Shown: piece by piece, positions 3,907 through 19,953 of the stretch
How positions within the stretch are numbered: the stretch's first letter is position 1
How the letters are laid out: each line of letters begins with the position of its first letter
Source of the DNA: Kineococcus radiotolerans SRS30216 = ATCC BAA-149
Lineage (GTDB): Bacteria; Actinomycetota; Actinomycetes; Actinomycetales; Kineococcaceae
Length of the DNA stretch: 32,000 nt
Assembly (NCBI RefSeq): GCF_000017305.1
Contig: NC_009664.2
Span: 3,570,001-3,602,000 of the forward strand
Direction: 5' to 3'
Notes under the pieces: model-generated
The model's database searches: none
What the model saw: only the letters and a program-made list of their open reading frames with translations
Told to the model about the DNA's origin: nothing
Position numbers and translations under genes: made by a program

Positions 3907-4439
3907 GGGGTCTCCTCCAGGCTCAGGGCCGTGCGCAGCGCGGACAGCCCGCGGTGCGCGTGGGTCTTGACCGCGCCCCGGCTGATGCCGAGGGCGGCGG
4001 CGATGTCCTCCTCGGACATCTCGCCCTGGTACCGCAGCACCAGGACCTCCCGCTGCCGGGTGGGCAGCGCGTCCAGGGCCCCCAGCACCATCCGGTGCTC
4101 GGCGGCCCGCACCGCGTGCTCCTCCGGCCCGTCGGGGGCCGGGTCCGGCAGCGGTCGCCTGCGGTCGGTGACGACGCGGTGCCGCAGCACGTCCCGGGCC
4201 CCGTTCACCACGCTGGTGCGCAGGTACGCGACGGCGGAGCCCTTGTCCGACAACCGGTTCCACCGACCGTGCAGGGTCACGAAGGCGTCGGCCACGACCT
4301 CCTCGGCGCTCGCGGACTCACCCATCAGCGAGCTCGCGAGCGCGACGAAGCGCCGCCAGTGCGCCGCGTAGAGCGCGCTGACCGCCTCGTCGGCGCTCCA
4401 CGAGCGCGGGTCGTCGGCCGGCTCAGCGGGCACGACCAC
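3903..4439 (-). CDS. ECF-type (group 4) sigma-70 family RNA polymerase sigma factor
   Basis: Region 2-like: LYAAHWRRFVALASSLMGESASAEEVVADAFVTLHGRWNRL...AYLRTSVVNGARD. Region 4-like: LPTRQREVLVLRYQGEMSEEDIAAALGISRGAVKTHAHRGLSALR. The ORF extends to GTG 4478, but GTG 4439/4433 follow a GGAGGAG Shine-Dalgarno, so the shorter start is preferred. Confidence 0.85.
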   Translation of the reverse strand: MVVPAEPADDPRSWSADEAVSALYAAHWRRFVALASSLMGESASAEEVVADAFVTLHGRWNRLSDKGSAVAYLRTSVVNGARDVLRHRVVTDRRRPLPDPAPDGPEEHAVRAAEHRMVLGALDALPTRQREVLVLRYQGEMSEEDIAAALGISRGAVKTHAHRGLSALRTALSLEETP

Positions 4440-4551: not shown

Positions 4552-4557
4552 TAGCGT
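4552..4557 (+). promoter_or_regulatory. -10-like hexamer TAGCGT 6 nt upstream of the HIT ATG (possible leaderless transcript)
   Basis: TAGCGTgcgggcATG matches the actinobacterial TANNNT -10 pattern. The spacing would put the TSS at or next to the A of the ATG, and there is no SD between them. Confidence 0.3.
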
Positions 4558-4563
4558 GCGGGC

Positions 4564-4929
4564 ATGAGCGAGGTCTCGCGCGTGCAGCGCGCTCCCGACG
4601 ACCTGTTCCTGCGGATCGTGGCCGGTGAGGTCCCCGCCACGATCGTCCACTCCGACGACCTCGTCGTCGCCTTCGAGGACGTGAACCCCCAGGCCCCCGT
4701 GCACGTGCTGGTGATCCCGCGCGAGCGCCACGAGAACGTCGCCCAGCTCGCCGCGGCCGCCCCGGCGACCCTGGCCCGGCTGGTGGAGGTGGCCCAGCGG
4801 ATCGCCGACGAGCGCTGCGGGGGGGAGTACCGCCTGGTCTTCAACACCGGCACCGCCGTGGGGCAGTCGGTCTTCCACGTGCACGGCCACGTCCTCGGGG
4901 GCCGGGGCTTCACCTGGCCGCCGGGCTGA
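4564..4929 (+). CDS. Histidine triad (HIT) family nucleotide hydrolase
   Basis: LFLRIVAGEVPATIVHSDDLVVAFEDVNPQAPVHVLVIPR... followed by the HIT signature SVFHVHGHVLGG (HxHxHxx). Confidence 0.9.
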   Translation: MSEVSRVQRAPDDLFLRIVAGEVPATIVHSDDLVVAFEDVNPQAPVHVLVIPRERHENVAQLAAAAPATLARLVEVAQRIADERCGGEYRLVFNTGTAVGQSVFHVHGHVLGGRGFTWPPG

Positions 4930-4951: not shown

Positions 4952-6736
4952 ATGTGCGGTCTCTGCGGTGAAGTCAGGTTCGACGGGCGGGCGGCGGACG
5001 TCGCCGCCGTGCAGCGGATGTCCGAGACCATGGCGGCCCGCGGTCCGGACGGCGAGGGCGTCTGGGCGCAGGGGCGGGTGGCCTTCGGGCACCGGCGGCT
5101 GTCGGTCATCGACCTGTCGGCCTGCGGGGCGCAGCCCATGCAGGACCCCGAGCTGGGGCTGACCGCCGTCTTCAACGGCTGCATCTACAACTACCCCGAG
5201 CTGCGCGCGGAACTCGCCGGGCACGGCTACCGGTTCACCTCGACCTCCGACACCGAGGTCATCGTCAAGGGCTACCACCGGTGGGGCGTCGACGTCGTCG
5301 ACCACCTGGTCGGGATGTTCGCCGTCGTCCTCCACGAGCGCGACTCCGGGCGCGTGGTCCTCATGCGCGACCGGCTGGGGATCAAGCCGCTCTACCTGGC
5401 CGAGACCCCGGGCCGGCTGCGGTTCGCCTCGACGCTGCCCGCGCTGCTGGCCGGGGGCGACGTCGACACCACGATCGACCCGGTCGCCCTGCACCACTAC
5501 CTCTCCTGGCACGCCGTCGTCCCCGCGCCGCGCACGGTGCTGCAGGGGGTCCGGAAGCTGCCGCCGGCCACCGTGCGGGTCCTCGAGGCGGACGGGACCA
5601 GCCGCGAGCACCGCTACTGGGCGCCGGACCACGTGCGCCGCGAGGAGTTCGCGGGGTTCTCCGAACGGGACTGGGAGGACGCGGTCCTGGAGTCGCTGCG
5701 GACCGCGGTGCGCCGGCGGACGGTGTCCGACGTGCCCGTGGGGGTCCTGCTCTCCGGCGGGCTGGACTCCAGCCTCATCACCGCGCTGCTGGCCGAGCAG
5801 GGGCAGACCGACCTCGCGACCTACTCCATCGGGTTCGAGTCCGTGGGGGGCCGCGGCGGCGACGAGTTCGAGTACTCCGACGTCATCGCCGAGCGGTTCG
5901 CGACGGACCACCACCGCATCCGCGTCTCCGGCGACGAGCTCGTCGGGGCCCTCGGGCACGCGGTGGGGGCGATGAGCGAACCGATGGTGAGCCACGACGT
6001 GGCCGCCTTCGACCTCCTCTCCCAGCAGGTCTCGCAGAGCATCAAGGTCGTGCAGTCCGGGCAGGGCGCCGACGAGGTGTTCGGCGGGTACCACTGGTAC
6101 CCGCCGCTGGCCGGGCTCACCCCCCAGCAGGGCGTCGACGTCTACGCGCGGGCGTTCTTCGACCGCGACCACGCCGGGATGGCGCAGGTGCTGGACCCGC
6201 GCTGGCTCACCGCCACCGACGTCTCCCGGGAGTTCCTCGCCGAGCACTTCGCCCGGCCCGGCGCCGACACCGCCGTCGACGCGGCGCTGCGCCTGGACAC
6301 CGAGGTCATGCTCGTCGACGACCCGGTGAAGCGGGTCGACAACACGACGATGGCGTGGGGCCTGGAGGCGCGGGTCCCGTTCCTGGACCACGAGCTCGTC
6401 GAGCTCGCCGCGGCGGTCCCGCCGGAGCTGCAGCTGTCCGGGGGCGGCAAGGGGATCCTCAAGCGGGTCGGGTACCGGGTCATCCCGCGCGAGGTCATCG
6501 ACCGCCCCAAGGGCTACTTCCCGGTGCCGGCCATCACCCACCTGGAGGGGAAGGTGCTGGGGACGGTCAAGGACGCGCTGACCAGCCGGGCGGCGCAGGA
6601 CCGGGGGCTGTTCCGGCCGGAGTACGTCCAGGGCCTGCTGCGCGACCCCAACGGGGAACTGACCCCGTTGCGCGGCAACAAGCTCTGGCAGCTCGGTCTG
6701 CTCGAGATGTGGTTGCAGCAGCACGGCATCGGCTGA
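4952..6736 (+). CDS. asnO: Asparagine synthetase-family glutamine amidotransferase, N-acetylglutaminylglutamine amidotransferase-like
   Basis: MCGLCGE provides the class-II amidotransferase Cys2 nucleophile. The synthetase domain shows VGVLLSGGLDSSLITALL (PP-loop SGGLDS). It is followed 11 bp later by the GNAT+ATP-grasp Ngg-like gene, which is the asnO-ngg arrangement. Confidence 0.85.
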   Translation: MCGLCGEVRFDGRAADVAAVQRMSETMAARGPDGEGVWAQGRVAFGHRRLSVIDLSACGAQPMQDPELGLTAVFNGCIYNYPELRAELAGHGYRFTSTSDTEVIVKGYHRWGVDVVDHLVGMFAVVLHERDSGRVVLMRDRLGIKPLYLAETPGRLRFASTLPALLAGGDVDTTIDPVALHHYLSWHAVVPAPRTVLQGVRKLPPATVRVLEADGTSREHRYWAPDHVRREEFAGFSERDWEDAVLESLRTAVRRRTVSDVPVGVLLSGGLDSSLITALLAEQGQTDLATYSIGFESVGGRGGDEFEYSDVIAERFATDHHRIRVSGDELVGALGHAVGAMSEPMVSHDVAAFDLLSQQVSQSIKVVQSGQGADEVFGGYHWYPPLAGLTPQQGVDVYARAFFDRDHAGMAQVLDPRWLTATDVSREFLAEHFARPGADTAVDAALRLDTEVMLVDDPVKRVDNTTMAWGLEARVPFLDHELVELAAAVPPELQLSGGGKGILKRVGYRVIPREVIDRPKGYFPVPAITHLEGKVLGTVKDALTSRAAQDRGLFRPEYVQGLLRDPNGELTPLRGNKLWQLGLLEMWLQQHGIG

Positions 6737-6747
6737 GGGGGGTCCTC

Positions 6748-8538
6748 GTGAACACCACCAAGCGCCGCACGACCGTCGCGGGGTTGCGGCACCGGACGTT
6801 CGACGTCCCCGCGATCTCCAGCCGCAGCTGGCAGCGGCCGCCGACCTGGCTCACCTCCGGGATGGCCCGCGACGTCGTCCTCGACATGGGGTGGGGCCGC
6901 CTGGTCTTCGGCCAGACGTTCACCGACCAGCGCGACGTCGTCGACGCCCTGCGCGCGGAGGAGACCGGCGAGCGCGACATCGCCATGTACGTGCGCGACC
7001 CGCAGGTCCTCGTGGGCCTGGCCCCGCACGAGCTCTTCATGGACCCCTCCCTGACCTTCCGGCTGCCGCTGACCCGCTACCGCGCCCCGCGCGACCGCAA
7101 CCCGGACGTGTTCGTGCGGATGGTCCGCGACCGCGCGGAGCTGGAGGAGGTCAACCGCATCTACGCCACCTGCGGGATGGTGACCTCCGACGCCGACGTC
7201 ATGTGGGCCAACCACCGCACCCGCACGTTCACCTACCTGGTCGCCGAGGACACCCGCACCCGCGAGGTCGTGGGGACGGTGACGGGGGTCGACCACGTCC
7301 TGGCCTTCGGCGACCCCGACCAGGGCGCCAGCCTGTGGTGCCTGGCCGCGGACCCGCAGGCCGCCCCGCGGGGGGTGGGGGAGGCGCTGGTGCGCACCCT
7401 GGCGGAGCGCTACGTCGCCCGCGGGCGCGCGGTGCTGGACCTGTCGGTGCTGCACGACAACGCCGGGGCCATCGCGCTGTACCGCCGGCTGGGTTTCCGC
7501 CCCGCGCCGCCGGTCGTGGTCAAGCGCAAGAACCCCATCAACCGGCCGCTGTTCTCCCCGCAGCCGGCGGGGCTGGCCGCGCTGAACCCCTACGCGCGGA
7601 TCATCGCCGACGAGGCGCTGCGCCGGGGGGTGCGCGTGGAGGTGACCGACGCGCCCAGCGGGGAGATGCGCCTGACCCACGCGGGGCGCTCGCTGCTGAC
7701 CCGGGAGTCGCTCTCGGAGCTGACCAGCGCGGTCGCCATGTCGCGCTGCGACGACAAGCGCGTCACCCGGCGGCTGCTGGCCGCCCGGGGGGTGCGGGTC
7801 CCCGAGGCCGTGGAGCTCGGCGCGGACCCGCTGCACGACGAGGCGGGGCTCGCGGCCTGCGAGGAGCTCGCGGCCCGCACCGGTCCCGTCGTGGTGAAAC
7901 CCGCGCGGGGCGAGCAGGGCAAGGGCATCACCGTCGGGGTCGGCGGCGGGGAGGACCTGCGGCGCGCCGTCGCGGAGGCCGCCTCGCACTGCCCCGACGT
8001 GCTGGTCGAGGAGCTCGTCCGCGGGCAGGACCTGCGCATCGTCGTCATCGACCACGAGGTCGTCGCCGCGGCCGTGCGGCGCCCCGCGGCCGTCATCGGC
8101 ACCGGCGACGACGACATCGCGACCCTGGTGACCCGGCAGAGCCGGCGGCGCGAGGCCGCCACCCGCGGCGAGTCCAGCATCCCCCTGGACGACACGACGC
8201 GGGCCGTCGTTGCCGACGCCGGGTTCGCCCTGGACGACGTCCTGCCCCGGGGGCAGCGGCTGGAGGTGCGCCGCACGGCGAACCTGCACACCGGCGGCAC
8301 CATCGACGACGTCACCGACGACCTGCACCCGCAGCTGGTGGAGGCCGCCGTCGCGGCGAGCCGGGCCATCGGCATCCCCGTCACCGGGCTGGACCTCCTG
8401 GTGCCCGACGTCGCCGGTCCCGACCACGTGGTCATCGAGGCCAACGAGCGCCCCGGGCTGGCCAACCACGCCCCCCGCCCGACCGCGGAGCGGTTCCTGG
8501 ACCTGCTCTTCCCCGAGACCCGGCGGCAGGGGGCCTGA
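6748..8538 (+). CDS. ngg: N-acetylglutaminylglutamine synthetase-like bifunctional GNAT acetyltransferase / ATP-grasp peptide ligase
   Basis: GTG at 6748 (VNTTKRR) lies after GAGGGGGG. GNAT part: TFTYLVAEDTRTREVVGTVTGVDH...PRGVGEALVRTLAERYVARGRAVLDLSVLHDNAGAIALYRRLGF. ATP-grasp part: DDKRVTRRLLAARGVRVPE...VVVKPARGEQGKGITVGV...DLRIVVIDHEVVAAAVRRPA...NLHTGGT...GLDLLV...VVIEANERPGL. Confidence 0.85.
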   Translation: MNTTKRRTTVAGLRHRTFDVPAISSRSWQRPPTWLTSGMARDVVLDMGWGRLVFGQTFTDQRDVVDALRAEETGERDIAMYVRDPQVLVGLAPHELFMDPSLTFRLPLTRYRAPRDRNPDVFVRMVRDRAELEEVNRIYATCGMVTSDADVMWANHRTRTFTYLVAEDTRTREVVGTVTGVDHVLAFGDPDQGASLWCLAADPQAAPRGVGEALVRTLAERYVARGRAVLDLSVLHDNAGAIALYRRLGFRPAPPVVVKRKNPINRPLFSPQPAGLAALNPYARIIADEALRRGVRVEVTDAPSGEMRLTHAGRSLLTRESLSELTSAVAMSRCDDKRVTRRLLAARGVRVPEAVELGADPLHDEAGLAACEELAARTGPVVVKPARGEQGKGITVGVGGGEDLRRAVAEAASHCPDVLVEELVRGQDLRIVVIDHEVVAAAVRRPAAVIGTGDDDIATLVTRQSRRREAATRGESSIPLDDTTRAVVADAGFALDDVLPRGQRLEVRRTANLHTGGTIDDVTDDLHPQLVEAAVAASRAIGIPVTGLDLLVPDVAGPDHVVIEANERPGLANHAPRPTAERFLDLLFPETRRQGA

Positions 8539-8539
8539 G

Positions 8540-9283
8540 GTGCCCGAGGCGCACTCCCTGCACCGGCACGCCCGCGACCAGCGCGCGGCGCTGGCCGGGC
8601 AGGTGCTGTCGGTGAGCAGCCCGCAGGGCAGGTTCGACGCGACCCCCTTCGACGGGCACCGCCTGGTGGACGTGCAGGCCCACGGCAAGCACCTGCTGTA
8701 CTCCTTCGAGCAGGCGCCCGACGTCCACGTGCACCTGGGGATGAAGGGGATCTTCCTGCGCACCGAGGACCTGTCGCTGCCGCCGCGGGCGGGGACGCGG
8801 ATGCGCCTGGCGGGGGAGACGACGGCGTTCTCCCTCATCGCCCCCAGCCGGTGCGAGGCGTTGGACGCGGCCGCCCGCGCCGAGCTGCTCGCCTCCCTCG
8901 GCCCGGACCCGCTGCGCGAGGGCGCGGCGGCCCGGGAGGAGGCCGCGCGCCGCCTGGGCACCGCCCGCGGCGCGGTGGGCGCCGCGGTCCTGGACCAGTC
9001 GGTGTGGGCCGGGATCGGCAACGCCTGGCGCGCGGAGCTGCTCTTCCTCGCCGGGATCGACCCCGGCCGGCGCGTCGACGAGGCCGAGGCGGGCCGGGTG
9101 TGGGACCTCGCCGTGGAACTCCTGCCCCTGGGCGTGGACGCCGGTCAGGTCGTCTCCGACCCCACCGCCCCCGACGAGCGCTGGGTCTACAAGCGGGAGA
9201 CGTGCCGGCGCTGCGGGAGCCCGGTGGGGACCCGGACCGTGGGCGGGCGCACCGCCTACACCTGCCCCGTCGACCAGCGCTGA
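8540..9283 (+). CDS. nei: Fpg/Nei family DNA glycosylase / AP lyase (endonuclease VIII-like)
   Basis: The start VPEAHSLHRHA supplies the catalytic Pro2/Glu3 after Met removal. H2TH-like region: LDQSVWAGIGNAWRAELLFLAGIDP. The C-terminal finger is CRRCGSPVGTRTVGGRTAYTCPVDQR. GTG at 8540 is 1 nt after the ngg stop. Confidence 0.85.
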   Translation: MPEAHSLHRHARDQRAALAGQVLSVSSPQGRFDATPFDGHRLVDVQAHGKHLLYSFEQAPDVHVHLGMKGIFLRTEDLSLPPRAGTRMRLAGETTAFSLIAPSRCEALDAAARAELLASLGPDPLREGAAAREEAARRLGTARGAVGAAVLDQSVWAGIGNAWRAELLFLAGIDPGRRVDEAEAGRVWDLAVELLPLGVDAGQVVSDPTAPDERWVYKRETCRRCGSPVGTRTVGGRTAYTCPVDQR

Positions 9284-9304: not shown

Positions 9305-10219
9305 TCAGTCGGGCAGGCGGGCCCGCAGGCGCTCCAGCTCGCGCTCGGCGCGGGCCACGCGCTCGTCGGCGGCGCGGGCGGTGCGCTCGGCCGCCCGGCG
9401 GGTCCCCGCGGCCGCCTCCAGCTGCTCGGTGACGGCGTCGAGCTGGGCCCGCAGGTCCTCCTGCCGCCGGACCAGGTCGTCGCCGCGGCGCCGGGCGGAG
9501 GTCAGGTCGCCCGCGCTGGCCCCGGCCTCCTCGCGGGCCTCGGCCAGCTCCTCCCGGGCCGCCGCGACGGCCTCGCGCAGCTCCCGCAGCTCGAGCTCGC
9601 GGCGCCGGGCCTCGCGGGCGGCCTTCTCCTCCCGCCGGGCCTTCAGCTCGTCCGGGGGAACCACCCGGGGGGCGGGCCCCGCGGGGGTGGGTGCCGCGGA
9701 CCGCGCCGGCGCGTCGAGCGCCGTCGCGCCCTCCACGTCGGCCTCCACGTCGGTGAGACCCACCGCCTCCAGGGGCCGCACCAGCAGCCCCGAGCGGACC
9801 GCGTCGGCCGCGGCGGGGCCGGTCATCCCCGCCCGCAGCGTCTGGACGACCTTCTCCCCGGCCTCGGGGCTCAGCCGCACCCCCGCGGCGCGGGTCAGCC
9901 GCGCGGCCCGCGCCCGCAGGGCCGCCAGCACCCGGTGCTGCTGCACCGAGAGCTCACGCAGTTCCGGGCCGGCCAGCGCGGCCGTGGCCTCCCGCACGGC
10001 CGCCCCGAGCTCGAGCAGCCGCTCGACCTCCTCGCGGTGCTCGCGGACGAGCAGGTTCACCGCCCACGCGGGGACCGTCGGCCGGCGCAGCCCCGCGACG
10101 CGGGCGGCCAGGTCGCGGTCGCCCTCGGCGCGGGCCCGGCGCGCGCGGGCGTCGCGGGTGGCGGTGAACTCGGCCGGCGGGCCCGCGTAGAGCTCCTCCA
10201 GCACGGTGGGCAGGTCCAC
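9305..10219 (-). CDS. Hypothetical protein with a conserved-looking N-terminal domain and an Arg/Glu/Ala-rich coiled-coil C-terminus
   Basis: 304-codon ORF starting at GTG 10219 (VDLPTVLEELYAGPPAEFTATRDARARRA...RRPTVPAWAVNLLVRE). The C-terminus reads ELKARREEKAAREARRRELELRELREAVAAAREELAEAREE...RAERELERLRARL. No catalytic motif was recognised. Confidence 0.6.
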   Translation of the reverse strand: MDLPTVLEELYAGPPAEFTATRDARARRARAEGDRDLAARVAGLRRPTVPAWAVNLLVREHREEVERLLELGAAVREATAALAGPELRELSVQQHRVLAALRARAARLTRAAGVRLSPEAGEKVVQTLRAGMTGPAAADAVRSGLLVRPLEAVGLTDVEADVEGATALDAPARSAAPTPAGPAPRVVPPDELKARREEKAAREARRRELELRELREAVAAAREELAEAREEAGASAGDLTSARRRGDDLVRRQEDLRAQLDAVTEQLEAAAGTRRAAERTARAADERVARAERELERLRARLPD

Positions 10220-10364: not shown

Positions 10365-12929
10365 ATGGGTGCGGAGATGACGCTGGGCGCGGAAGAGGAA
10401 CTGCACCTCATCGACCTCGGGAGCGGGCAGTTGTCCGCCCGCGCCCCGCAGGTCCTGTCCCGGCTCGACCCCGCCTCCTACTCCGCGGAACTGCAGCGCA
10501 CGACGGTCGAGACCAACACCGACGTGGTGACGTCGCTGACGGAACTGCGCGAGGAACTCCTGCGCCTGCGCAAGGGCCTGGTGGAGGCCGCCGCCCGCGA
10601 CGGGCTCGGGGTCGCGGCCGTGGGCACGGCCCCCCGTTCGACGTTCACCGACTTCGAGCTCACCGCCACCGGGCGCTACGGGCGCATGCAGGAGCAGTAC
10701 CGGCTGCTGGTCGACGAGCAGCTCATCTGCGGGACCCAGGTCCACGTCGGCGTCTCCGACCGCGACCTCGCCGTCGAGATCATGCAGCGCGTCGCGCCGA
10801 GCCTGCCCGTGCTGCTGGCCCTCTCGGCCAGTTCCCCGTTCTGGAACGGCCAGGACACCGGCTACGCCAGCATCCGCACCACCGTCTGGCAGCGCTGGCC
10901 GACCGCGGGCAGCACCGGCCCGCTGGAGTCCGCCGCCCAGTACGACGAACTCCTCGCCGACCTCATCGCCTCCGGGGTGATCGGGGACGAGAAGATGGCG
11001 TACTTCGACGTCCGCCCCAGCTCCCACGCCCCCACCCTGGAACTGCGGGTGGCCGACGCCTGCCCGCTCGTCGACGACGCCGTGCTGATCGCCGGGTTGT
11101 TCCGCGCCGGGGTCCGGGCCGCGGAGCTCGACGTGCTCGCGGGCCGGCCCCGGCCGCAGGTGCCGAGCCCGCTGCACCGGGCCGGGATCTGGCAGGCGGC
11201 CCGCGGCGGCCTGTCGGGGAACCTGCTCGACGGGACCGAGCACCCCCGCCCCGTCCCCGCCCCCGAGGCGGTCCGGGCCCTGCTGACCCGGTTGCGCCCC
11301 CAGCTGGAGGAACTCGGCGACTGGGAGGAGGTGGCCGAGCTGACCGAGGCCACCCTCGCCCGCGGGAACTCCGCCGACCGCCAGCGCGCGGCGTTCGTCG
11401 AGCGCGGCGAGCTGGACGACGTGGTGCGCCTCGTCGTGGAGGAGACCCGCGGGTCCGCCGCCGGGGAGGCGCCCGCCACCGCCGCCCTGCGCCGCTACCG
11501 GACCCGGGCCGGCGACGAGGCCGTGGGGGGCAACGCCCGGCCCCGGCCGGTGTACCGGGAGGTCATCGAGCACGTCCGCCGGCGGGGCCCGGCCGGGATG
11601 GCCGCCGCCGAGGCCGAGCGCGACGCCTGGGCCCGCGAGCGGCAGCTGGCCTACGTCGTCACCGGCCCGGGGGGCCTGAGCCGGGAACCCTTCCACGTCG
11701 ACCTCGTCCCGCGCGTGGTCCTGCCCCACGAGTGGCGGCAGCTGCGCCGCGGGCTGGTGCAGCGCGCCCGCGCGATCGAGTGCTTCCTGCGCGACGTCTA
11801 CGGCGAGCAGCGCGTCCTGCGCGACGGGGTGCTGCCCCGCGACGCCGTCGTCGGCGCCCCGGGCTGGGACGAGCGGGCGACCCGGTTGCCGGCCGGCGCC
11901 GTGCGCGCGGCGGTGGCGGGTTTCGACCTCGTGCGCGACGAGCACGGCGGCTGGCGGGTGCTGGAGGACAACGTCCGCGACCCCAGCGGCATCGCCTACG
12001 CCGTGGCTGCGCGCGACGTGGTGGACGCCGTCCTGCCCGACCTGCCGCGGCCGGGGGCGGTGCTGGACCCGGCGACGGCGTTCGAGCAGCTGCGCTCCAC
12101 GCTGCTGGCCCGCGCCCGCCCGGGGACGCGCCCGGTGCTGCTGTCCAGCGGTCCCGCCAGCGCGGCCTGGTTCGAGCACCGCAAGCTCGCCGACGGGGCG
12201 GGGTTGCTGCTCGCCGGCGCCGACGACCTCGACGTGCAGCGCGGCCGCGTCCTGCACCGCCCGTCCGGCGACCCCGTCGGCGTGCTCTACCTGCGCCTGG
12301 ACGGCGCGCTCCCGGACCTGCGCGACGGCGCCGGGCGCGCGATCGGGCGGGAGGTCTTCGACGTGGCCGTCGAGGGCGGGGTGGTGCTCGCCAACGCCCC
12401 CGGCAACGGCGTCGCCGACGACAAGGCCATGTACCGCTCGGTGCCGGAACTCGTCAACTACTACCTCGGGGAACGACCGCTGCTGGAGTCGGTGCCGACC
12501 TACCGGCTCGGCGACGAGGGGGAGCGCCGCGCGGTCCTGGAACGGGTGGGGGAACTCGTGACGAAACCCGTCGACGGCTACGGCGGGCGGGGGGTCCTCA
12601 TCGGTCCCCACGCCACGGCCGCGGAGGTCGCCGCCCGGCGGCAGGAGATCGCGGCCGACCCCGCGCGCTGGGTGGCGCAGGAGGTCGTGCGGTTGTCCTC
12701 GGTGCCCAGCTGGAACTCCGGGGACCGCACGCTGCAACCGCGCCACGTGGACCTGCGGGCCTTCGTGCTCGTCCGGGGCACCGCCGAGGCCGACTGCACC
12801 CTCGCCGACGTCGCCCTCACCCGGGTCGCCCCCGAGGGCAGCCTCGTCGTGAACTCCTCCCGCGGCGGGGGCGCCAAGGACACCTGGATCCTGCGCGAGG
12901 AGGACGACCGCCCGGACGGGCGCCGCTGA
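10365..12929 (+). CDS. Fusion protein: GCS2/YbdK-type carboxylate-amine ligase (N-terminal, ~aa 1-365) plus circularly permuted type-2 ATP-grasp ligase (C-terminal, ~aa 395-854)
   Basis: N-terminal half: MTLGAEEELHLID, LICGTQVHVGV, SSPFWNGQDTGYASIRTTVWQRWPTAG, YFDVRPSSHAPTLELRVADACP. C-terminal half: PFHVDLVPRVVLPHEWRQLRRGLVQRARAIECFLRDVYGEQRVLRDGVLP, RVLEDNVRDPSGIAYA, NAPGNGVADDKAMYRSVPELVNYYLGERPLLESVPTY, LVTKPVDGYGGRGVLIGP. It is a single open frame with no internal stop. Confidence 0.8.
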   Translation: MGAEMTLGAEEELHLIDLGSGQLSARAPQVLSRLDPASYSAELQRTTVETNTDVVTSLTELREELLRLRKGLVEAAARDGLGVAAVGTAPRSTFTDFELTATGRYGRMQEQYRLLVDEQLICGTQVHVGVSDRDLAVEIMQRVAPSLPVLLALSASSPFWNGQDTGYASIRTTVWQRWPTAGSTGPLESAAQYDELLADLIASGVIGDEKMAYFDVRPSSHAPTLELRVADACPLVDDAVLIAGLFRAGVRAAELDVLAGRPRPQVPSPLHRAGIWQAARGGLSGNLLDGTEHPRPVPAPEAVRALLTRLRPQLEELGDWEEVAELTEATLARGNSADRQRAAFVERGELDDVVRLVVEETRGSAAGEAPATAALRRYRTRAGDEAVGGNARPRPVYREVIEHVRRRGPAGMAAAEAERDAWARERQLAYVVTGPGGLSREPFHVDLVPRVVLPHEWRQLRRGLVQRARAIECFLRDVYGEQRVLRDGVLPRDAVVGAPGWDERATRLPAGAVRAAVAGFDLVRDEHGGWRVLEDNVRDPSGIAYAVAARDVVDAVLPDLPRPGAVLDPATAFEQLRSTLLARARPGTRPVLLSSGPASAAWFEHRKLADGAGLLLAGADDLDVQRGRVLHRPSGDPVGVLYLRLDGALPDLRDGAGRAIGREVFDVAVEGGVVLANAPGNGVADDKAMYRSVPELVNYYLGERPLLESVPTYRLGDEGERRAVLERVGELVTKPVDGYGGRGVLIGPHATAAEVAARRQEIAADPARWVAQEVVRLSSVPSWNSGDRTLQPRHVDLRAFVLVRGTAEADCTLADVALTRVAPEGSLVVNSSRGGGAKDTWILREEDDRPDGRR

Positions 12930-12960
12930 GGACCCGCACCGCTGAGGCCCGGCACCGGCC

Positions 12961-14838
12961 GTGGGGCAGCATGGGCCCGTGAGCGACGAACCCCTGGACC
13001 CGACCCCCGGTCCCGCCCTGGCCCTGGCCGACGAGCTGGTCGGGGCGTGGGGGAGCTGGCGCCCCACGATGACCCCGGACGCGCGCCGGGTCGCCTTCGT
13101 CTCCGACCGCTCCGACCTGCCGCAGCTGTGGGTGCAGGACGTCGTCCTCGACGGCCCGGCCCCGCCCGCGCGGCGGATCCACCTCTCCGAGGACCCCGTG
13201 GTGTCGGTGTCGTGGGCGGCGGACAGCCGCTGGCTGGCGTGCGCGGTCGCCGCCGGCGGCGGGGTCCGGACCGAGGTGTGGGTGGTGCGCCCCGACGGCA
13301 CCGACGCCCGCCGCATCGCCGGCGAGGCCCACGAGCACGCCGAGCTCGGTCCCTGGACGCGCAGCGGGCACCGCGTCGTCGTCACCTTCCCCGCCACCGG
13401 GGGGAAACCCTCCCGGGCCTTCCTGGGCGACCCCGCCACCGGCCGGCTGGACCCGCTGGCCGAGGGCGGGCTCCTGCACGTCCTCGACGTGTCCCAGGAG
13501 GAGCGGTTCCTCGTCGTCGTCGACGGCGAGCGCGGCCAGCAGTTCGCCGTCGTCGTCGACCGCCTCATCGACGAGCACCAGCCGCTGCTGCCGCACGGCG
13601 CGACGGGTTCCACCGACGTCGCCCTGCTGCGCCCGGCCCCCGCCGGCGACACCGGCCCCGTCTACGTCTACCTCGCCTCCGACGTCGGCCTGCCCCGGCG
13701 CCAGCTGCTGGGGATGCCGTTCGGCCCCAACGGCTACCGCGGCGAGGCGCAGACCCTCGCCGCCCGCGACGACGCCGAGCTGGAGTTCGTCGACGGCGAC
13801 GACGCGGGAACCCTGCTGCTGCTGGTGTGGAACGTCGCCGGGGCGAGCGAGCTGGAGCTGTTCGACACCACCACCCGCGAGCGCACCCCGCTGCGGGGGA
13901 TGCCCGGGCTCGTCGCGACCGACCCGGTGCTCTCCCGCGACGGGCGCAGCGTCGTCCTCGGCGTCGAGGGCCCGCTGCGGCCGCGGGAGCTGTGGCACCT
14001 CGACACCGCCACGGGGGAGTGGACGCCCGTCACGCACTCCTCGGAACCCCCCGCGGGCGACCTCGTCGTCCCCGTCCTGGAGACCTACCCCGCCCACGAC
14101 GGGCTGACCCTCACCGGCTGGCTGTACCGGGCGGCGGGCGAGGGGGCGGGAGCGGCCGCGCTGTACCTGCACGGCGGCCCCGAGGCCCAGGAGCGGCCCA
14201 CGTTCAACCCCCTGGTCCAGGCCCTCGTCGCCGCGGGCGTCACCGTGCTCGCCCCCAACGTGCGCGGGTCCTCGGGCTTCGGGCGGGAGTTCGTGCACGC
14301 CGACGACGTCGAGAAGCGCCGCGACGCCTTCGCCGACGTGCTGACCAGCGCCGGGCACCTCGTGGCGCGGGGACTGGCCGACCCCGCGCGGATCGCGGTC
14401 ACCGGACGGTCCTACGGCGGGTACCTCGTCCTCGCCTCGCTCGCGTTCTCACCGGGGGTCTTCGCCGCCGGCGTCGACATCTGCGGCATGAGCGACCTCA
14501 CGACCTTCTACCGCGACACCGAACCCTGGATCGGGGCGGCCGCGGTCAGCAAGTACGGCCACCCCGAGCGCGACCGCGCCCTGCTGGAGGAGCTCTCCCC
14601 GCTGCGGCGGGTCGAGGCCGTCGACGTCCCCCTCCTCGTCGTCCACGGCGAGCTGGACACCAACGTCCCCCTCGGGGAGGCCCGCCAGGTCGTCGCCGCG
14701 CTGCGGGAGCTGGAGCGCGACGTCGACTACCTGGAGCTGGCCGGGGAGGGGCACGACTACCGGCGCGCGGAGTCGCGCCGGCAGCTGCTGCACCGCGTCG
14801 TCACCTTCCTCGGTGCGCACCTGGGCACGGCCGCCTGA
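12961..14838 (+). CDS. S9 family serine peptidase (prolyl oligopeptidase / acylaminoacyl-peptidase-like, beta-propeller plus alpha/beta hydrolase)
   Basis: Catalytic triad context: IAVTGRSYGGYLV (GxSxGG nucleophile), LLVVHGELDTNVP (Asp) and LAGEGHDY (His). The N-terminal propeller-like repeats include FVSDRSDLPQLWV. The start is GTG 12961, or alternatively GTG 12979. Confidence 0.85.
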   Translation: MGQHGPVSDEPLDPTPGPALALADELVGAWGSWRPTMTPDARRVAFVSDRSDLPQLWVQDVVLDGPAPPARRIHLSEDPVVSVSWAADSRWLACAVAAGGGVRTEVWVVRPDGTDARRIAGEAHEHAELGPWTRSGHRVVVTFPATGGKPSRAFLGDPATGRLDPLAEGGLLHVLDVSQEERFLVVVDGERGQQFAVVVDRLIDEHQPLLPHGATGSTDVALLRPAPAGDTGPVYVYLASDVGLPRRQLLGMPFGPNGYRGEAQTLAARDDAELEFVDGDDAGTLLLLVWNVAGASELELFDTTTRERTPLRGMPGLVATDPVLSRDGRSVVLGVEGPLRPRELWHLDTATGEWTPVTHSSEPPAGDLVVPVLETYPAHDGLTLTGWLYRAAGEGAGAAALYLHGGPEAQERPTFNPLVQALVAAGVTVLAPNVRGSSGFGREFVHADDVEKRRDAFADVLTSAGHLVARGLADPARIAVTGRSYGGYLVLASLAFSPGVFAAGVDICGMSDLTTFYRDTEPWIGAAAVSKYGHPERDRALLEELSPLRRVEAVDVPLLVVHGELDTNVPLGEARQVVAALRELERDVDYLELAGEGHDYRRAESRRQLLHRVVTFLGAHLGTAA

Positions 14839-14851
14839 GACGATCGGGGCG

Positions 14852-16060
14852 ATGAACGCGCGAACGAACGCCCAGCCCCCCGCGACGACGCCGCGGGAGG
14901 TCGACCTCCCCGTCGACGTCGAGTACCTGACGAGCACCCTCATGGAGCTGCTGCGCATCCCGAGCCCCTCGGGGCGCACCGACGCCGTCATGCAGGTCGT
15001 GGGCACCCACGTCGACGCCCTGGGCCTGTCCTTCGACCTGACCCGGCGCGGGATCCTGCGCGCCACCCTGCCCGGGGCCACCGACGCCGTGAAGCGGGCC
15101 GTGGTGGTGCACGCCGACACCATCGGGCTGATGGTCAAGCAGGTCAAGGACAGCGGCCGCCTGGAGGTCGTCCCCGTCGGCAGCCACAGCGCCCGCTTCG
15201 CCGAGGGCGCGCACGTGACGATCTTCACCGACGACTTCGACCGGGTGTACACCGGCACGGTCCTGCCGCTGAAGAGCAGCGGGCACACCTTCGGCGACGA
15301 GATCGACACCCAGGGCGTGGGCTGGGACCAGGTCGAGGTGCGCATCGACGAACCCGTCGAGTCCGCCCGCGACGTCGCCGCCCTCGGCGTCGAGGTCGGG
15401 GACTTCGTCGCCCTCGACGCCGCGCCGCAGCTCACCCGCGGCGGGTACGTGAAGTCGCGCCACCTGGACGACAAGGCCGGCCTGGCCGCGTGCCTGGCCG
15501 CGCTGAAGGCCCTGCACGACGCCGACGTCCCCCTCGCGGTGACCGCGCAGTTCCTCGTCACCATCGGCGAGGAGGTCGGTTTCGGCGCCACCCACGGGCT
15601 GGCCCCCGACGTCGCCGAGCTCGTCGCGGTGGACAACGCCGTCGTCGCGGCCGGGCAGAACTCCCGCGAGGAGCTGGTCAGCATCGGGATGCTCGACATG
15701 ACCGGCCCCTTCGACTACCACCTGTCCCGGCGGCTGCACTCCCTGGCCCGCGCCCACGGCATCCCCGCGGTGCGCGACGTGTACCGCCACTACCGCTCCG
15801 ACGCGGCCCCCGCGCTGGAGGCCGGCATCGAGGCCCGCCACGCCCTGCTCGGCTTCGGCCTGGACTCCAGCCACGGTCACGAGCGCGCCCACGTCGACGG
15901 CCTCGTCGCCCTGGCCCGCCTGCTCGTGGTGTACCTCCAGAGCGGGCTGACCTTCGACGACTGGGACCAGGCCGAGGCCGGGCCGCTGGCCGACTTCCCC
16001 AGCACCAGCGTCCAGCCGGCCGAGCCCGAACCGGTGGACCGCACGGTCCTCCCCGACTGA
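14852..16060 (+). CDS. M42 family metallopeptidase (glutamyl-aminopeptidase/FrvX-like), of the type that accompanies asnO-ngg
   Basis: LLRIPSPSGRTDAV, VVVHADTIGLMVKQVKDSGRLEVVPVGS, SRHLDDKAGLAACL, VTIGEEVGFGATHG and GFGLDSSHGHER are typical M42 metal-ligand and fold motifs. ATG at 14852 is 13 nt after the S9 stop. Confidence 0.85.
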   Translation: MNARTNAQPPATTPREVDLPVDVEYLTSTLMELLRIPSPSGRTDAVMQVVGTHVDALGLSFDLTRRGILRATLPGATDAVKRAVVVHADTIGLMVKQVKDSGRLEVVPVGSHSARFAEGAHVTIFTDDFDRVYTGTVLPLKSSGHTFGDEIDTQGVGWDQVEVRIDEPVESARDVAALGVEVGDFVALDAAPQLTRGGYVKSRHLDDKAGLAACLAALKALHDADVPLAVTAQFLVTIGEEVGFGATHGLAPDVAELVAVDNAVVAAGQNSREELVSIGMLDMTGPFDYHLSRRLHSLARAHGIPAVRDVYRHYRSDAAPALEAGIEARHALLGFGLDSSHGHERAHVDGLVALARLLVVYLQSGLTFDDWDQAEAGPLADFPSTSVQPAEPEPVDRTVLPD

Positions 16061-16082
16061 CGCGGTCTGGCACCCTGGGCGG

Positions 16083-18011
16083 GTGCGCTGGCTCGTCGTG
16101 GACAACCACGACTCCTACACCCACAACCTGGTCCAGCTGCTGGCCGTCGCCACCGGCACCGACCCGGTCGTGGTCAGCGACGACGACGTCGCCCCCGGGG
16201 AGCTCGACCTCGGCGGCTTCGCCGGTGTCGTCGTCTCGCCCGGGCCGGGGCACCCCGCCAACGCCCGCGACTTCGCCCTCTCCGCCGACGTCCTCGCCCG
16301 CGCCGAGGTGCCCGTGCTGGGCGTGTGCCTGGGGATGCAGGGGATCGCCCTGGCCGAGGGCGCGGTCGTGGACCCCGCCCCCCGGCCGCGGCACGGTTTC
16401 GTCGACCGGGTCCGGCACACCGGCACCTCGGTCCTCGCCGGCCTGCCCCAGGACTTCGCCGCGACCCGCTACCACTCCTTCCGCGTCGCCGAACCCCTGC
16501 CCGACAGCCTGGAACCGCTGGCGTGGGCCGGGGACGGGGTGCTCATGGCGCTGCGCCACCGGTCCCGCCCGCTGGTCGGGGTGCAATTCCACCCGGAATC
16601 GGTGGCCAGCACCACCGGGGCGCTGATCGTGGAGAACTTCGTGCGGTGGTGCCGGCGGTGGGGTTCGCGGCCCCACCGCCTGCACGCCCGCCGCTGCGGG
16701 CCGGCCGTCGACACCGAACGCGCGTTCGCGCACCTGTTCCCCGCCTCCGACGCGGCGTTCTGGCTGGACTCCGCCGCCCGCGGCGCGGGGTCGGGGCGGT
16801 TCTCGTTCCTGGGCGAGGGGACCGGGCCCGTCGTGGACTCCCTCGCCGGTCTCGCGGCCCGGCTGCGCGAGCGGGCGGTGGCCGGCGCGGACGCGGTGCC
16901 GTTCGAGTTCACCGGCGGTCTCGTCGGCTGGGCCGGGTACGAGGCCCGCGACGAGTGCGGGTTCCCGACGTCGCGGCGGGACGAGACCCCGCCCGCCGCG
17001 TGGGTGTTCTGCGACCGGTTCGTCGCCGTCGACCACGACGAGGACACCACGTGGGTCGTGGCCCTGTCCGAGGACGAGGCGGAACCGGCCTGGCTGGAGG
17101 AGGCCGCCGGTCTCCTCGCGGACCTCCCGCCGCTGCCGCCGCCCGCGCCCGCGCCGGAGGCCGCGGTGACCCTGGACACCCCGCCCGCGCGGTACCGGCA
17201 GGACGTCCTCACCGCGCAGCGGCAGCTGGTCGCGGGGGAGAGCTACGAGATCTGCCTCACCACCCGGGCCCGGGTCCCCGCCGCGGGCGACCCGTTCGAC
17301 GCCTACCGGCGGTTGCGGCGCGCCAACCCCGCCCCCTACGCCGCGTACCTGCGGATCGGCGGCGTCGTCGTGCTGAGCAGTTCCCCCGAGCGGTTCCTGC
17401 GGATCGGCACCTCGGGCGCGGTGGAGACCCGCCCCATCAAGGGGACCGCCGCCCTGGACTCCGATCCCGCTGCGCTGCAGGCGGACCCGAAGACCCGCGC
17501 GGAGAACCTCATGGTCGTCGACCTGCTGCGCAACGACCTCGGCCGCGTCTGCGTCCCCGGCAGCGTCACCGTGCCCGACCTCATGGCGGTGGAGACGCTG
17601 CCCACGGTGCACCAGCTCGTCACCACGGTGCGCGGCCGGCTGCGCCCGGAGGTCACGGCCGTGGACTGCCTGCTCAGCTGCTTCCCGCCCGGGTCGATGA
17701 CCGGGGCGCCGAAGCTGCGGACCACCGAGATCATCGACGCCCTGGAACAGCGCCCGCGCGGGATCTACTCCGGCACGATCGGGTGGTTCTCCACCACCGG
17801 CGCCGCGGACCTCGCCGTCGTCATCCGGACCGCGGTGCTCGTCGGGGACGAGTGGCGGGTCGGGGCCGGCGGCGCGGTCGTGCTCGACTCCGACCCCGAC
17901 GCCGAGGTGGCGGAGGTGCTGCTGAAGCTGCGGGCCCCGCTGGCCGCGCTCACGACCTCGCCGTGGCCGGGGCGGGTCACCCCCTCCGGCGGGCCTTCGC
18001 CGCGTACATGA
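16083..18011 (+). CDS. pabB: Fused aminodeoxychorismate synthase (PabA glutamine amidotransferase plus PabB component I)
   Basis: GATase-1 part: VLGVCLGMQG (Cys nucleophile) and VGVQFHPES. Chorismate-binding part: GESYEICLT, SSSPERFLRI, ETRPIKGT, ENLMVVDLLRNDLGRV, PPGSMTGAPK, RGIYSGTIGWF. GTG at 16083 is 22 nt after the M42 stop. Confidence 0.85.
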   Translation: MRWLVVDNHDSYTHNLVQLLAVATGTDPVVVSDDDVAPGELDLGGFAGVVVSPGPGHPANARDFALSADVLARAEVPVLGVCLGMQGIALAEGAVVDPAPRPRHGFVDRVRHTGTSVLAGLPQDFAATRYHSFRVAEPLPDSLEPLAWAGDGVLMALRHRSRPLVGVQFHPESVASTTGALIVENFVRWCRRWGSRPHRLHARRCGPAVDTERAFAHLFPASDAAFWLDSAARGAGSGRFSFLGEGTGPVVDSLAGLAARLRERAVAGADAVPFEFTGGLVGWAGYEARDECGFPTSRRDETPPAAWVFCDRFVAVDHDEDTTWVVALSEDEAEPAWLEEAAGLLADLPPLPPPAPAPEAAVTLDTPPARYRQDVLTAQRQLVAGESYEICLTTRARVPAAGDPFDAYRRLRRANPAPYAAYLRIGGVVVLSSSPERFLRIGTSGAVETRPIKGTAALDSDPAALQADPKTRAENLMVVDLLRNDLGRVCVPGSVTVPDLMAVETLPTVHQLVTTVRGRLRPEVTAVDCLLSCFPPGSMTGAPKLRTTEIIDALEQRPRGIYSGTIGWFSTTGAADLAVVIRTAVLVGDEWRVGAGGAVVLDSDPDAEVAEVLLKLRAPLAALTTSPWPGRVTPSGGPSPRT

Positions 18012-18900
18012 CGGCGTCGGCGGCGTGCATCAGCTCCTCCGGGTCCAGGTGGCGGCCGTCGGGGCCGGGGGACGTCGCCGCCCCCACCGTCACCCCGACC
18101 CGGGGCAGGTCGCCGTCGCCGGGGCCCCGGCCCCACGACCCGTCGGTCAGCCGCTCGACGACGAGCCCGGCGGCCCGCGCGGTGGTGCCCTCGCACAGGA
18201 CGGCGAACTCGTCCCCGCCGAGGCGGGCGGTGGTGTCCTCGGGGCGGACGGTGCCCCGGAGGTGGTCGGCGAAGGCGCGCAGGACCCGGTCGCCGGTGGC
18301 GTGGCCGCGGGTGTCGTTGACGGTCTTGAAGTCGTCGAGGTCCAGGTAGAGGACGGTGACGGGTTCCCCGTGGCGCTCCCCGCGGGGCAGGGCGCGCTGC
18401 AGCTCGTCGAGGAAGCGGGTCCGGTTGCCGAGGCCGGTGAGGGGGTCGTGGGTCGCCTCGTGCTGCAGCCGCCGCCGCAGGTCCTCGCGGTCGGTGGTGT
18501 CCTCCAGGTGCATGATCGCGTGGGGGTGCGCCGTCGTGCCCGCCCGGACGGCGGAGGTGGTGACGCGGACGTCGAGGAGACGCCCGTCGGCGGTGCGGAA
18601 GCGCGTCTCGTGCACCACGGCCGAGGTCGTCCCCTCGCGCAGGGAGCGGCAGGCCTCGACGGCGGCGGCCACCAGCGGCCCGTCGACGAGGCGGAAGAGG
18701 TCACGGCCGACCAGTTCGGCCGCGGGGTAGCCGAGGAGCCGGGTCACCGCGTCGTTGACGCGGGTCACGACGCCGTCCGGCTCGCACACCGCGACGGCGA
18801 TGGGGGCGTGGACGAAGGCGCTGATCGCGTCCTGGGCCAGGGACCGGACCGAGGGGTCGCCGTCGTCGACGGGGGCCGACCCGCCGCTGTCGTGTCGCAC
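17977..18900 (-). CDS. PAS-GGDEF diguanylate cyclase
   Basis: PAS-like part: FVHAPIAVAVCEPDGVVTRVNDAVTRLLGYPAAELVGRDLFRLV. GGDEF domain: HDPLTGLGNR, LYLDLDDFKTVNDTRGHATGD, ARLGGDEFAVL, ADAVMYAAKARRRG. The start is ambiguous (TTG 18936, GTG 18909 or GTG 18900); 18900 has a GAGG 9 nt upstream. The 3' end overlaps pabAB by 35 bp. Confidence 0.85.
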   Translation of the reverse strand: MRHDSGGSAPVDDGDPSVRSLAQDAISAFVHAPIAVAVCEPDGVVTRVNDAVTRLLGYPAAELVGRDLFRLVDGPLVAAAVEACRSLREGTTSAVVHETRFRTADGRLLDVRVTTSAVRAGTTAHPHAIMHLEDTTDREDLRRRLQHEATHDPLTGLGNRTRFLDELQRALPRGERHGEPVTVLYLDLDDFKTVNDTRGHATGDRVLRAFADHLRGTVRPEDTTARLGGDEFAVLCEGTTARAAGLVVERLTDGSWGRGPGDGDLPRVGVTVGAATSPGPDGRHLDPEELMHAADAVMYAAKARRRG

Positions 18901-18967
18901 CGTCCTCACCCTCGTCCCCGACGGTGGAACGCGCAACCTCTCCGGGGTCCCCCCTCCCCGGGGCCGC

Positions 18968-19837: not shown

Positions 19838-19870
19838 CAGCCCTCCCGGGGCCCGGGCGCCGCCCCGCCG

Positions 19871-19896
19871 GGGCTCGGCGGGCGGGCTCGGCGGGC
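19871..19896. repeat. Perfect 13-bp tandem duplication GGGCTCGGCGGGC x2 in the pabC / DUF72 divergent spacer
   Basis: Direct reading: 19871-19883 and 19884-19896 are identical. The repeat is embedded in a G-tract run (GGGCGGGCTCGGCGGGCGGGG, 19880-19900). Confidence 0.9.
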
Positions 19897-19953
19897 GGGG
19901 CGGCGGCCCCGCCCCCACCCTGTGACCTGACGCGGTGGACGGGAGGGGGAGCG

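Follow-up and report, generated by a model that had tools for sequence, protein, structure and literature searches.

Domain architecture of the FUS protein

We analysed a 32,000-nucleotide stretch of the Kineococcus radiotolerans SRS30216 genome (contig NC_009664.2, positions 3,570,001 to 3,602,000), referred to below as the window, and focus on a gene, here called FUS, whose product joins a GCS2/YbdK-type carboxylate-amine ligase module to a circularly permuted (CP) ATP-grasp type 2 module. FUS is followed by a gene for an S9 serine peptidase. The window is very GC-rich (72-82%), and the GC content at third codon positions (GC3) of FUS is 0.97, on par with the adjoining genes. The open reading frame (ORF) starts with ATG and is uninterrupted over 854 codons, as a preliminary description based on the letters of this DNA had stated, and the sequence motifs quoted there are all found in the translation. 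The protein is 100% identical to the K. radiotolerans SRS30216 entries ABS04858.1 and WP_041292175.1, which differ in their start: WP_041292175.1 begins at position 10365 and has 854 residues, ABS04858.1 begins at the ATG at 10377, four codons later, and has 850.

The N-terminal half matches the Pfam family GCS2 (PF04107) over residues 7-252 (1.8e-49, 169 bits against a cutoff of 21), while the NCBIfam models NF010041 (370 bits, cutoff 332, spanning residues 5-362) and TIGR02050 (268 against 176 bits) are also exceeded. The YbdK structures 1R8G and 1TT4 align with residues 5-355 (1e-28). All 29 residues that are invariant among 22 stand-alone relatives are retained, including E10-E11-E12, E42, E49, R217, E226, R228 and D231. 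The C-terminal half matches CP_ATPgrasp_2 (PF14403) over residues 449-822 (2e-109, 366 bits against a cutoff of 32) and CP_ATPgrasp_1 (PF04174) over residues 449-772 (4.4e-80), and aligns with the structural-genomics CP ATP-grasp entry 3N6X over residues 384-844 (7.7e-80). Here, too, all of the 44 residues invariant among 24 stand-alone relatives are kept, comprising among others E534-D535-N536, D685-D686-K687, K734, G740-G741-G743, D796, R798 and N830.

An AlphaFold2 model of FUS built with 52 homologues has a mean predicted local distance difference test score (pLDDT) of 84.9 and a predicted template modelling (TM) score of 0.86; its floppy segments, residues 93-120 and 176-181, both lie in the GCS2 half. 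Foldseek searches with this model return 3N6X with a target-normalized TM-score of 0.83 and YbdK with 0.81. After 3N6X, the C-terminal half resembles eukaryotic glutathione and homoglutathione synthetases, the glutathionylspermidine synthetase GspS, YgiC/YjfC and the E-64 ligase Cp1B, and the N-terminal half also matches plant glutamate-cysteine ligase. Between the modules the preliminary description had placed a linker of about 30 residues. A linker is present, but it is shorter, as the flanking alignments leave approximately residues 365-383. It is modelled as coil, yet with a pLDDT of about 83-86, and Y378 and R381-E385 are already invariant across the fusion family.

Domains, folds and invariant residues thus bear out the preliminary description, in which one chain carries two different ATP-dependent amide ligases. 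The domain order is the expected one, with GCS2 N-terminal and CP_ATPgrasp_1/2 C-terminal, and with regard to nucleotide- and metal-binding residues the family-invariant positions are conserved throughout both halves. Judged by these residues and the predicted model, both modules look catalytically competent.

Table 1. Coordinates of the FUS gene, its modules and the surrounding features in the window.
Feature	Position	Strand	Basis
Fusion ligase gene FUS, 854 aa	10365..12929	+	ORF list and domain matches
GCS2/YbdK-type carboxylate-amine ligase module, residues ~5-364	10377..11456	+	PF04107, NF010041, 1R8G/1TT4
Inter-module linker, residues ~365-383	11457..11513	+	Between end of YbdK/NF010041 alignment and start of 3N6X alignment
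Circularly permuted ATP-grasp type 2 module, residues ~384-844	11514..12896	+	PF14403, 3N6X
Junction without cassette AsnO (asnO2), 31 nt	12930..12960	+	blastn against L088
S9 serine peptidase	12961..14838	+	PF00326 1.4e-43
NAGGN-system M42 peptidase	14852..16060	+	TIGR03106 490 bits, cutoff 398
AsnO1, NAGGN-type glutamine amidotransferase, Ngg-linked	4952..6736	+	TIGR03104 968 bits, cutoff 570
Ngg, N-acetylglutaminylglutamine synthetase; neighbouring NAGGN system, outside the cassette	6862..8538	+	TIGR03103 791 bits, cutoff 569
HIT	4555-4929	+	Pfam
Fpg/Nei glycosylase	~8534-9283	+	Pfam
Ala/Arg/Glu-rich ORF, 304 aa, coiled-coil-like	9305-10219	-	No Pfam/NCBIfam match
Fused PabA-PabB aminodeoxychorismate synthase (PabAB)	16083-18011	+	Pfam, NCBIfam
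PAS-GGDEF gene	17977-18936	-	
PabC-like class IV aminotransferase	18968-19918	-	

Distribution of the fusion family

Database proteins matching FUS at E<1e-10 number 1692, and the best 120 of them are all 823-882 residues long and carry both domains, demonstrating that FUS is a genuine single protein. A frameshift or assembly artefact was rejected, since the same fusion is found in hundreds of independent genomes. At least 506 relatives are present in a one-genome-per-species collection, and those seen so far all belong to Actinomycetota. When representatives at 50% identity were searched exhaustively, about 10 full-length fusion clusters emerged, the most divergent at 38% identity, and the other matches were stand-alone YbdK-like or stand-alone CP ATP-grasp proteins; altogether 11846 representative clusters match FUS or one of its halves. 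The divergent fusions come from Streptacidiphilus, Corynebacterium qintianiae and Dietzia, and the family thus appears to be confined to Actinomycetota. The preliminary description regarded the locus as the best candidate in the window for an undescribed system. This holds for its function and for the gene cassette described below; the architecture itself, which hundreds of actinobacterial species share, already has a name at NCBI ('carboxylate--amine ligase/circularly permuted type 2 ATP-grasp protein').

FUS belongs to a conserved gene cassette

We then compared 80 orthologous loci with 10-kb flanks. Genes were called by GC3 bias, the 1196 products were clustered, and neighbours were counted over 78 loci, while counts of cassette composition were limited to those 72 loci that have 4 kb or more of downstream sequence. 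An AsnO-type amidotransferase is found at position +1 of FUS in 67 of the 78 loci and an S9 peptidase at position +2 in 57, and no further conserved neighbour is seen on either side of FUS among the clustered products of these loci. Compositions over the 72 loci are FUS-AsnO-S9 (64 loci), FUS-S9 (3), FUS-AsnO (1) and FUS alone (4), with an S9 gene downstream of FUS in 67. The distance between the FUS stop codon and the AsnO start, which is unambiguous owing to the Met-Cys-Gly N-terminus of AsnO, is mostly -20 to +13 nt, a spacing that indicates translational coupling of the two genes.

The cassette AsnOs score 893-969 bits (cutoff 570) with TIGR03104, the model for the AsnO of the N-acetylglutaminylglutamine amide (NAGGN) system, and are 60-67% identical to NAGGN AsnOs. 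This high similarity in sequence argues for an acceptor that is chemically related to that of NAGGN synthesis. As to the S9 protein of the window, its translation shows the GxSxGG, Asp and His motifs, and its nearest solved relatives are acylaminoacyl peptidases or acyl-peptide hydrolases (5L8S, 1.6e-38; 1VE6; 5YZM).

The composition of the cassette varies between genera. Streptacidiphilus, whose fusion is 51% identical to FUS, has the canonical order FUS-AsnO-S9. In C. qintianiae (42% identical) FUS and S9 follow each other with overlapping stop and start codons and without AsnO. The Dietzia locus (38% identical; L093, 4350-12654) also lacks AsnO; there, genes for a stand-alone GCS2 and a stand-alone CP ATP-grasp precede FUS, which is followed by S9 and an M20 peptidase. 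Because C. qintianiae and Dietzia keep S9 without AsnO, S9 is the most constant partner of FUS, whereas AsnO is frequent yet dispensable. The Dietzia array places four ligase modules in a row and could represent a variant of the system for longer peptides. At one locus from a Quadrisphaera-like metagenome-assembled genome (L052, 12577-14479) the S9 matches fall into two pieces in different frames, i.e. a frameshifted pseudogene or an assembly error.

A simpler arrangement, in which a stand-alone GCS2 gene is followed by an AsnO of this type and then by a related S9 hydrolase, is found in Streptomyces fungicidicus, S. viridifaciens, Nonomuraea gerenzanensis and Embleya. These GCS2 proteins are 48-53% identical to residues 5-348 of FUS, and the cassettes are located on Streptomyces plasmids, an 11.85-Mb Nonomuraea replicon and a 5.7-Mb Embleya replicon. 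Ngg was not found on these replicons, nor in any other Streptomyces record of the collection.

The stand-alone CP ATP-grasps of Sinorhizobium meliloti pSymB and Deinococcus deserti are partnered by alpha-E and transglutaminase genes. Using these partners as tblastn queries, we found no match in the window, nor in any of 88 related loci, while the positive control reached 1e-35 across phyla. The alpha-E/transglutaminase system was therefore rejected for all of these loci, in agreement with the preliminary description, which had seen no such partners. This result bears on whether the ligases might tag a protein or peptide, that is, add amino acids to a protein carboxylate or amine in the manner of RimK or of pupylation, with S9 removing the tag. 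Ligase and peptidase pairs are typical of tagging systems, and stand-alone CP ATP-grasps that are 36-38% identical to the C-terminal half of FUS do adjoin alpha-E and transglutaminase genes, for which a peptide-synthesis system was predicted by Iyer et al. (2009), cited after PMC5666114. However, besides the absence of these partners, no conserved target gene or small ORF lies beside the cassette, and AsnO is from a family whose substrate is a free dipeptide. Moreover, only short peptides are admitted by S9 enzymes that have a beta-propeller. We consider tagging to be decidedly unlikely.

No precursor-like small ORF is conserved beyond the genus within 1.2 kb on either side of the 78 cassettes (stop-to-stop ORFs of 18-120 residues); one large cluster of small ORFs is low-complexity noise from GC-rich frames. 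A pathway for a peptide made by ribosomes and modified after translation (RiPP), in which AsnO would be a lasso-type cyclase, S9 an isopeptidase or macrocyclase acting on a ribosomal precursor, and FUS a decorating enzyme, was rejected on this ground and appears extremely improbable. It could draw on a secondary match of AsnO to NF033535, a model for lasso cyclases (about 200 bits), on the Atxe2 lasso isopeptidase model NF033523 as the best NCBIfam match of S9 (68 bits), and on peptide cyclases among the weaker matches of S9 in the PDB. Both scores are far below the respective cutoffs of 525 and 400 bits, while AsnO exceeds the TIGR03104 cutoff by more than 300 bits, and the intergenic gaps are too small for a precursor gene.

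The cassette AsnO has been lost from the K. radiotolerans locus

The closest relative of the locus is that of Kineococcus sp. L088, which is syntenic and encodes a fusion protein 86% identical to FUS. Its gene order is asnO1-ngg-(nei remnant)-hyp-FUS-asnO2-S9-pabAB, without M42. In blastn alignments of the window with L088, the segment 12546-14469 of L088, corresponding to asnO2, remains unmatched between window positions 12910 and 13013. Conversely, only the window has M42 (14877-16063) and an intact nei, and the differences are clean and gene-sized. In L088, nei is reduced to a remnant of 51 residues, as opposed to the intact Fpg/Nei gene of the window.

In a neighbour-joining tree of AsnO proteins (200 bootstraps) the AsnOs of fusion cassettes form one clade (bootstrap 100), with those of the stand-alone-GCS2 cassettes as sister group. 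AsnO1 of the window pairs with L088 asnO1 (91% identity, bootstrap 100) outside the clade of cassette AsnOs. The tree thus rejects the possibility that the AsnO of the window is the cassette AsnO moved upstream. Therefore, the only AsnO of the window is the Ngg-linked paralogue, the cassette AsnO has been deleted at this locus, although another copy may exist elsewhere in the genome, and the window presents an atypical, reduced form of the cassette. Three Quadrisphaera-like loci lack asnO2 as well, and two of these have NAGGN genes within 10 kb. It is possible that AsnO1, 3.6 kb upstream of FUS, stands in for the lost enzyme. In K. radiotolerans the product would either stay un-amidated, as it must in Corynebacterium and Dietzia, or be amidated by the NAGGN AsnO nearby.

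The deletion raises the question whether FUS is a functionless remnant of a broken cassette, the more so as four other loci have FUS alone. Compared with the L088 orthologues, the ratio of nonsynonymous to synonymous substitution rates (dN/dS) is 0.19 for FUS (0.11 for the N-terminal and 0.29 for the C-terminal half) and 0.18 for S9, so that both genes are still under purifying selection in K. radiotolerans. Together with the intact frame and the complete set of invariant residues, the natural occurrence of FUS-S9 without AsnO in Quadrisphaera-like genomes, C. qintianiae and Dietzia, and the presence of a NAGGN-type AsnO upstream, this makes a loss of function very improbable.

Further genes and features of the window

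Within the window, FUS is separated from S9 by 31 nt, S9 from M42 by 13 nt and M42 from PabAB by 22 nt. The preliminary description had noted two peptidase genes downstream of FUS. Both are confirmed, but only S9 is a conserved partner, while M42 is a member of the NAGGN trio by TIGR03106. We rejected M42 as a partner of FUS on the basis of this assignment and of its absence from other fusion loci. Ngg and M42 were not found within 10 kb of the other fusion loci save for two Quadrisphaera-like ones; in L043 and L052 M42 lies 7-9 kb upstream of FUS, in L052 next to ngg. The NAGGN trio itself is split in the window, where asnO-ngg and M42 are about 6.3 kb apart with nei, the ORF at 9305-10219, FUS and S9 between them. 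The trio and FUS-S9 are thus physically interleaved.

Upstream of FUS, the reverse-strand ORF at 9305-10219 is kept in L088 and, with 57% identity, in L001; it is not conserved in other genera. The pabAB and PabC-like genes are syntenic in L088, where PhoD replaces PAS-GGDEF between them. A functional linkage of FUS to PabAB and PabC, i.e. the idea of a p-aminobenzoate-glutamate product, was dropped, as the adjacency is syntenic in Kineococcus alone; weak PabAB-like matches in other loci are on the opposite strand and at variable distances. No leader RNA or riboswitch was detected in the window by Rfam at gathering thresholds. Promoter and terminator scans of the window were empty as well, the sigma-70 and T-tract consensus being uninformative in DNA of 76% GC. 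The GC content peaks (81-82%) at 2001-4000 and 19001-20000, and a forward-strand ORF at 1670-3241 has no Pfam match.

Comparison with known ligase systems

One close parallel to the cassette is the NAGGN trio (AsnO-Ngg-M42), known from S. meliloti and from Pseudomonas aeruginosa (PA3459-PA3461). In this system Ngg makes N-acetyl-Gln-Gln and AsnO amidates its C-terminus using glutamine, while a co-encoded peptidase has been suggested to balance the pool (PMC8070244, PMC5563000). By analogy, the FUS cassette would likewise combine a ligase for a capped peptide with a TIGR03104-type AsnO and a peptidase. The enzymes differ, however. Ngg consists of a GNAT acetyltransferase and a classical ATP-grasp, to which the GCS2 and CP ATP-grasp modules of FUS are unrelated, and FUS has neither a TIGR03103 nor a GNAT match in Pfam and NCBIfam searches. 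With GCS2 in place of GNAT, the cap would be made with ATP rather than with acetyl-CoA. The peptidase is an M42 metalloenzyme in the NAGGN trio and an S9 serine enzyme in the FUS cassette, and AsnO is dispensable in some lineages of the latter.

A second parallel is two-step glutathione synthesis by GshA-GshB or the bifunctional GshF. FUS shares with these a module of the glutamate-cysteine ligase superfamily followed by an ATP-grasp, implying two consecutive ATP-dependent ligations that lead to a gamma-glutamyl tripeptide, and its C-terminal half resembles the fold of eukaryotic glutathione synthetase. Yet the N-terminal module of FUS belongs to family 2 (YbdK-like) and that of GshF is a GshA, the C-terminal module is a permuted ATP-grasp of the COG2308 type rather than one resembling D-Ala-D-Ala ligase, and the partners AsnO and S9 are not shared with GshF. 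The GshF models NF002688 and TIGR01435 are not among the NCBIfam hits of FUS at E<=0.01. Taken together, the cassette can be viewed as a non-homologous analogue of both the NAGGN trio and two-step glutathione synthesis.

Similarity to the other systems concerns single modules or the general route. The C-terminal half of FUS is a full-length member of PF14403/PF04174, like the CP ATP-grasps of the alpha-E/transglutaminase operons (COG2308-COG2307-COG1305; S. meliloti pSymB, D. deserti). It is 36-47% identical to stand-alone CP ATP-grasps and keeps all invariant residues, but differs in its fusion to GCS2 and in having AsnO and S9 as partners. Rv2411c-Rv2409c of Mycobacterium tuberculosis is another operon of the alpha-E/transglutaminase kind. 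The N-terminal half shares the fold and the conserved acidic and basic residues of Escherichia coli YbdK (1R8G). With approximately 25% identity it nevertheless falls below the YbdK equivalog (172 against 425 bits), and it is fused and part of a cassette. Finally, the dapdiamide (DdaG/DdaF) and E-64 (Cp1B/Cp1D) pathways (PMC12568646) resemble the route proposed below in that two ATP-dependent amide ligases build a pseudo-tripeptide stepwise and independently of nonribosomal peptide synthetases. Cp1B is a distant structural neighbour of the C-terminal half of FUS, but the ligases of these pathways are not related to FUS in sequence. Unlike FUS, these pathways pair an ATP-grasp with an adenylating ligase, use unfused enzymes and make protease or enzyme inhibitors.

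Proposed function of FUS and its cassette

We consider it reasonably probable that FUS is a bifunctional peptide synthetase independent of nonribosomal peptide synthetases, the product of which would be a small gamma-glutamyl or otherwise N-capped di- or tripeptide (amide) serving as a stress or compatible solute and turned over by S9. The architecture, fold and residue conservation of FUS, the conservation of its cassette, the gene loss and the purifying selection are observed, as described above, whereas all of the chemistry, the order of the steps, the product and its physiological role are our inference. The GCS2 module would turn a carboxylate into an acyl phosphate and couple it with an amino acid through the latter's amino group; the most plausible carboxylate is the gamma-carboxyl of glutamate, or else another small acid acting as N-terminal cap. 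The CP ATP-grasp module would then activate the new C-terminal carboxylate and add a second amino acid or an amine. Where present, AsnO would turn a free carboxylate of the product into an amide, so that in most lineages the product would be amidated at its C-terminus. S9, as a putative cytoplasmic enzyme resembling acylaminoacyl peptidases, may hydrolyse the N-blocked peptide and thereby control the pool; its relatives strip N-blocked residues from short peptides, in keeping with a product capped by a gamma-glutamyl or acyl group. A one-ligation version of the product would come from the stand-alone-GCS2 cassettes. Since both systems lie side by side in Kineococcus (L088), the product is probably not NAGGN itself.

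The preliminary description had suggested two consecutive ligations, leading either to a small molecule of the gamma-glutamyl type or to the tagging of a substrate. The comparative context favours the former, whereas tagging finds no support in a target gene or small ORF.

If the product were a thiol, GCS2 would make gamma-Glu-Cys, the ATP-grasp would add a third residue and AsnO would amidate it, which amounts to a special case of the proposed pathway with a redox cofactor as product. The membership of the N-terminal half in the glutamate-cysteine ligase superfamily and its fold match to the plant enzyme, the glutathione, homoglutathione and glutathionylspermidine synthetases that follow 3N6X among the fold matches of the C-terminal half, and the GshF-like architecture are all in line with this, and glutathione amide occurs in purple sulfur bacteria. 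Nevertheless, the N-terminal half fails the equivalog models of true glutamate-cysteine ligases, namely TIGR02048 (35 bits, cutoff 249), TIGR03444 for EgtA (27, cutoff 371) and TIGR01436 (24, cutoff 463), among them the cyanobacterial and plant GshA models. YbdK is only a weak glutamate-cysteine ligase, and most actinomycetes rely on mycothiol and ergothioneine. In addition, the partner AsnO resembles the NAGGN AsnOs, which act on a C-terminal glutamine, and no conserved redox or thiol genes are found near FUS among the 78 loci. We therefore regard a thiol product as unlikely.

Several observations weigh against the peptide synthetase proposed here. The N-terminal half falls below every NCBIfam equivalog model with a defined substrate, including NF010039 (285 against 371 bits) and the YbdK model NF010040, and the substrates cannot be read from the sequence. 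In L088 the cassette coexists with the adjoining asnO-ngg genes, indicating that the two systems are not simple substitutes, and FUS adjoins NAGGN genes in Kineosporiales only. Several lineages do without AsnO, so that amidation is no intrinsic part of the system. Macrocyclases and peptide cyclases among the weaker PDB matches of S9 leave room for a biosynthetic role of this enzyme, too. The role as stress solute or osmolyte is drawn from analogy; carriers of the cassette live in desiccation-prone habitats, consistent with it. In the literature searched we found no characterisation of any fusion or of any CP ATP-grasp.

More broadly, and with less confidence, it seems possible that the FUS-AsnO-S9 and stand-alone-GCS2 cassettes make a family of small peptide amides, gamma-glutamyl or N-capped, that has so far escaped detection; these compounds would be widespread in Actinomycetota of soil, plant surfaces and deserts and could act as stress solutes or cofactors.

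Implications for annotation and for the CP ATP-grasp family

TIGR03104 labels the AsnO next to GCS2-type ligases as a NAGGN amidotransferase, e.g. in L058, L008, L005 and L079, where the labelled genes lie at about 12.5-14.4 kb or 5.2-7.0 kb, and in L081 and L084-L087. Since Ngg was not detected within 10 kb of the majority of fusion cassettes, nor on the large replicons with stand-alone GCS2, this naming is probably a systematic over-annotation. A case in point may be a genomic study of salt tolerance in Frankia, which reported an AsnO more than 60% identical to known AsnOs, a putative 'Ngg' sharing under 15% identity with known Ngg proteins, and, located between these two, a gene for a peptidase (PMC5563000). 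The low identity of this 'Ngg' suggests that a non-Ngg AsnO cassette was taken for a NAGGN cluster. The FUS-AsnO-S9 cassette, its stand-alone-GCS2 variant and their relation to NAGGN appear to be new in the literature searched, although the survey of amidoligase neighbourhoods by Iyer et al. (2009) may already list this neighbourhood.

The CP ATP-grasps form a very large family. FUS ties one of its members covalently to a carboxylate-amine ligase and genetically to a peptidase and to an amidotransferase of known reaction type, and the cassette thus provides a concrete, testable hypothesis for CP ATP-grasp chemistry. Should the cassettes indeed make a family of peptide amides, the family PF14403/PF04174 would thereby gain its first defined reaction, and hundreds of genes automatically named 'N-acetylglutaminylglutamine amidotransferase' would act on a different substrate. 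The cassette points to a small peptide (amide) in many stress-tolerant actinobacteria, among them Kineococcus, Geodermatophilaceae, Microbacteriaceae and Propionibacteriaceae, with the simpler stand-alone-GCS2 form being carried by Streptomyces and Nonomuraea.

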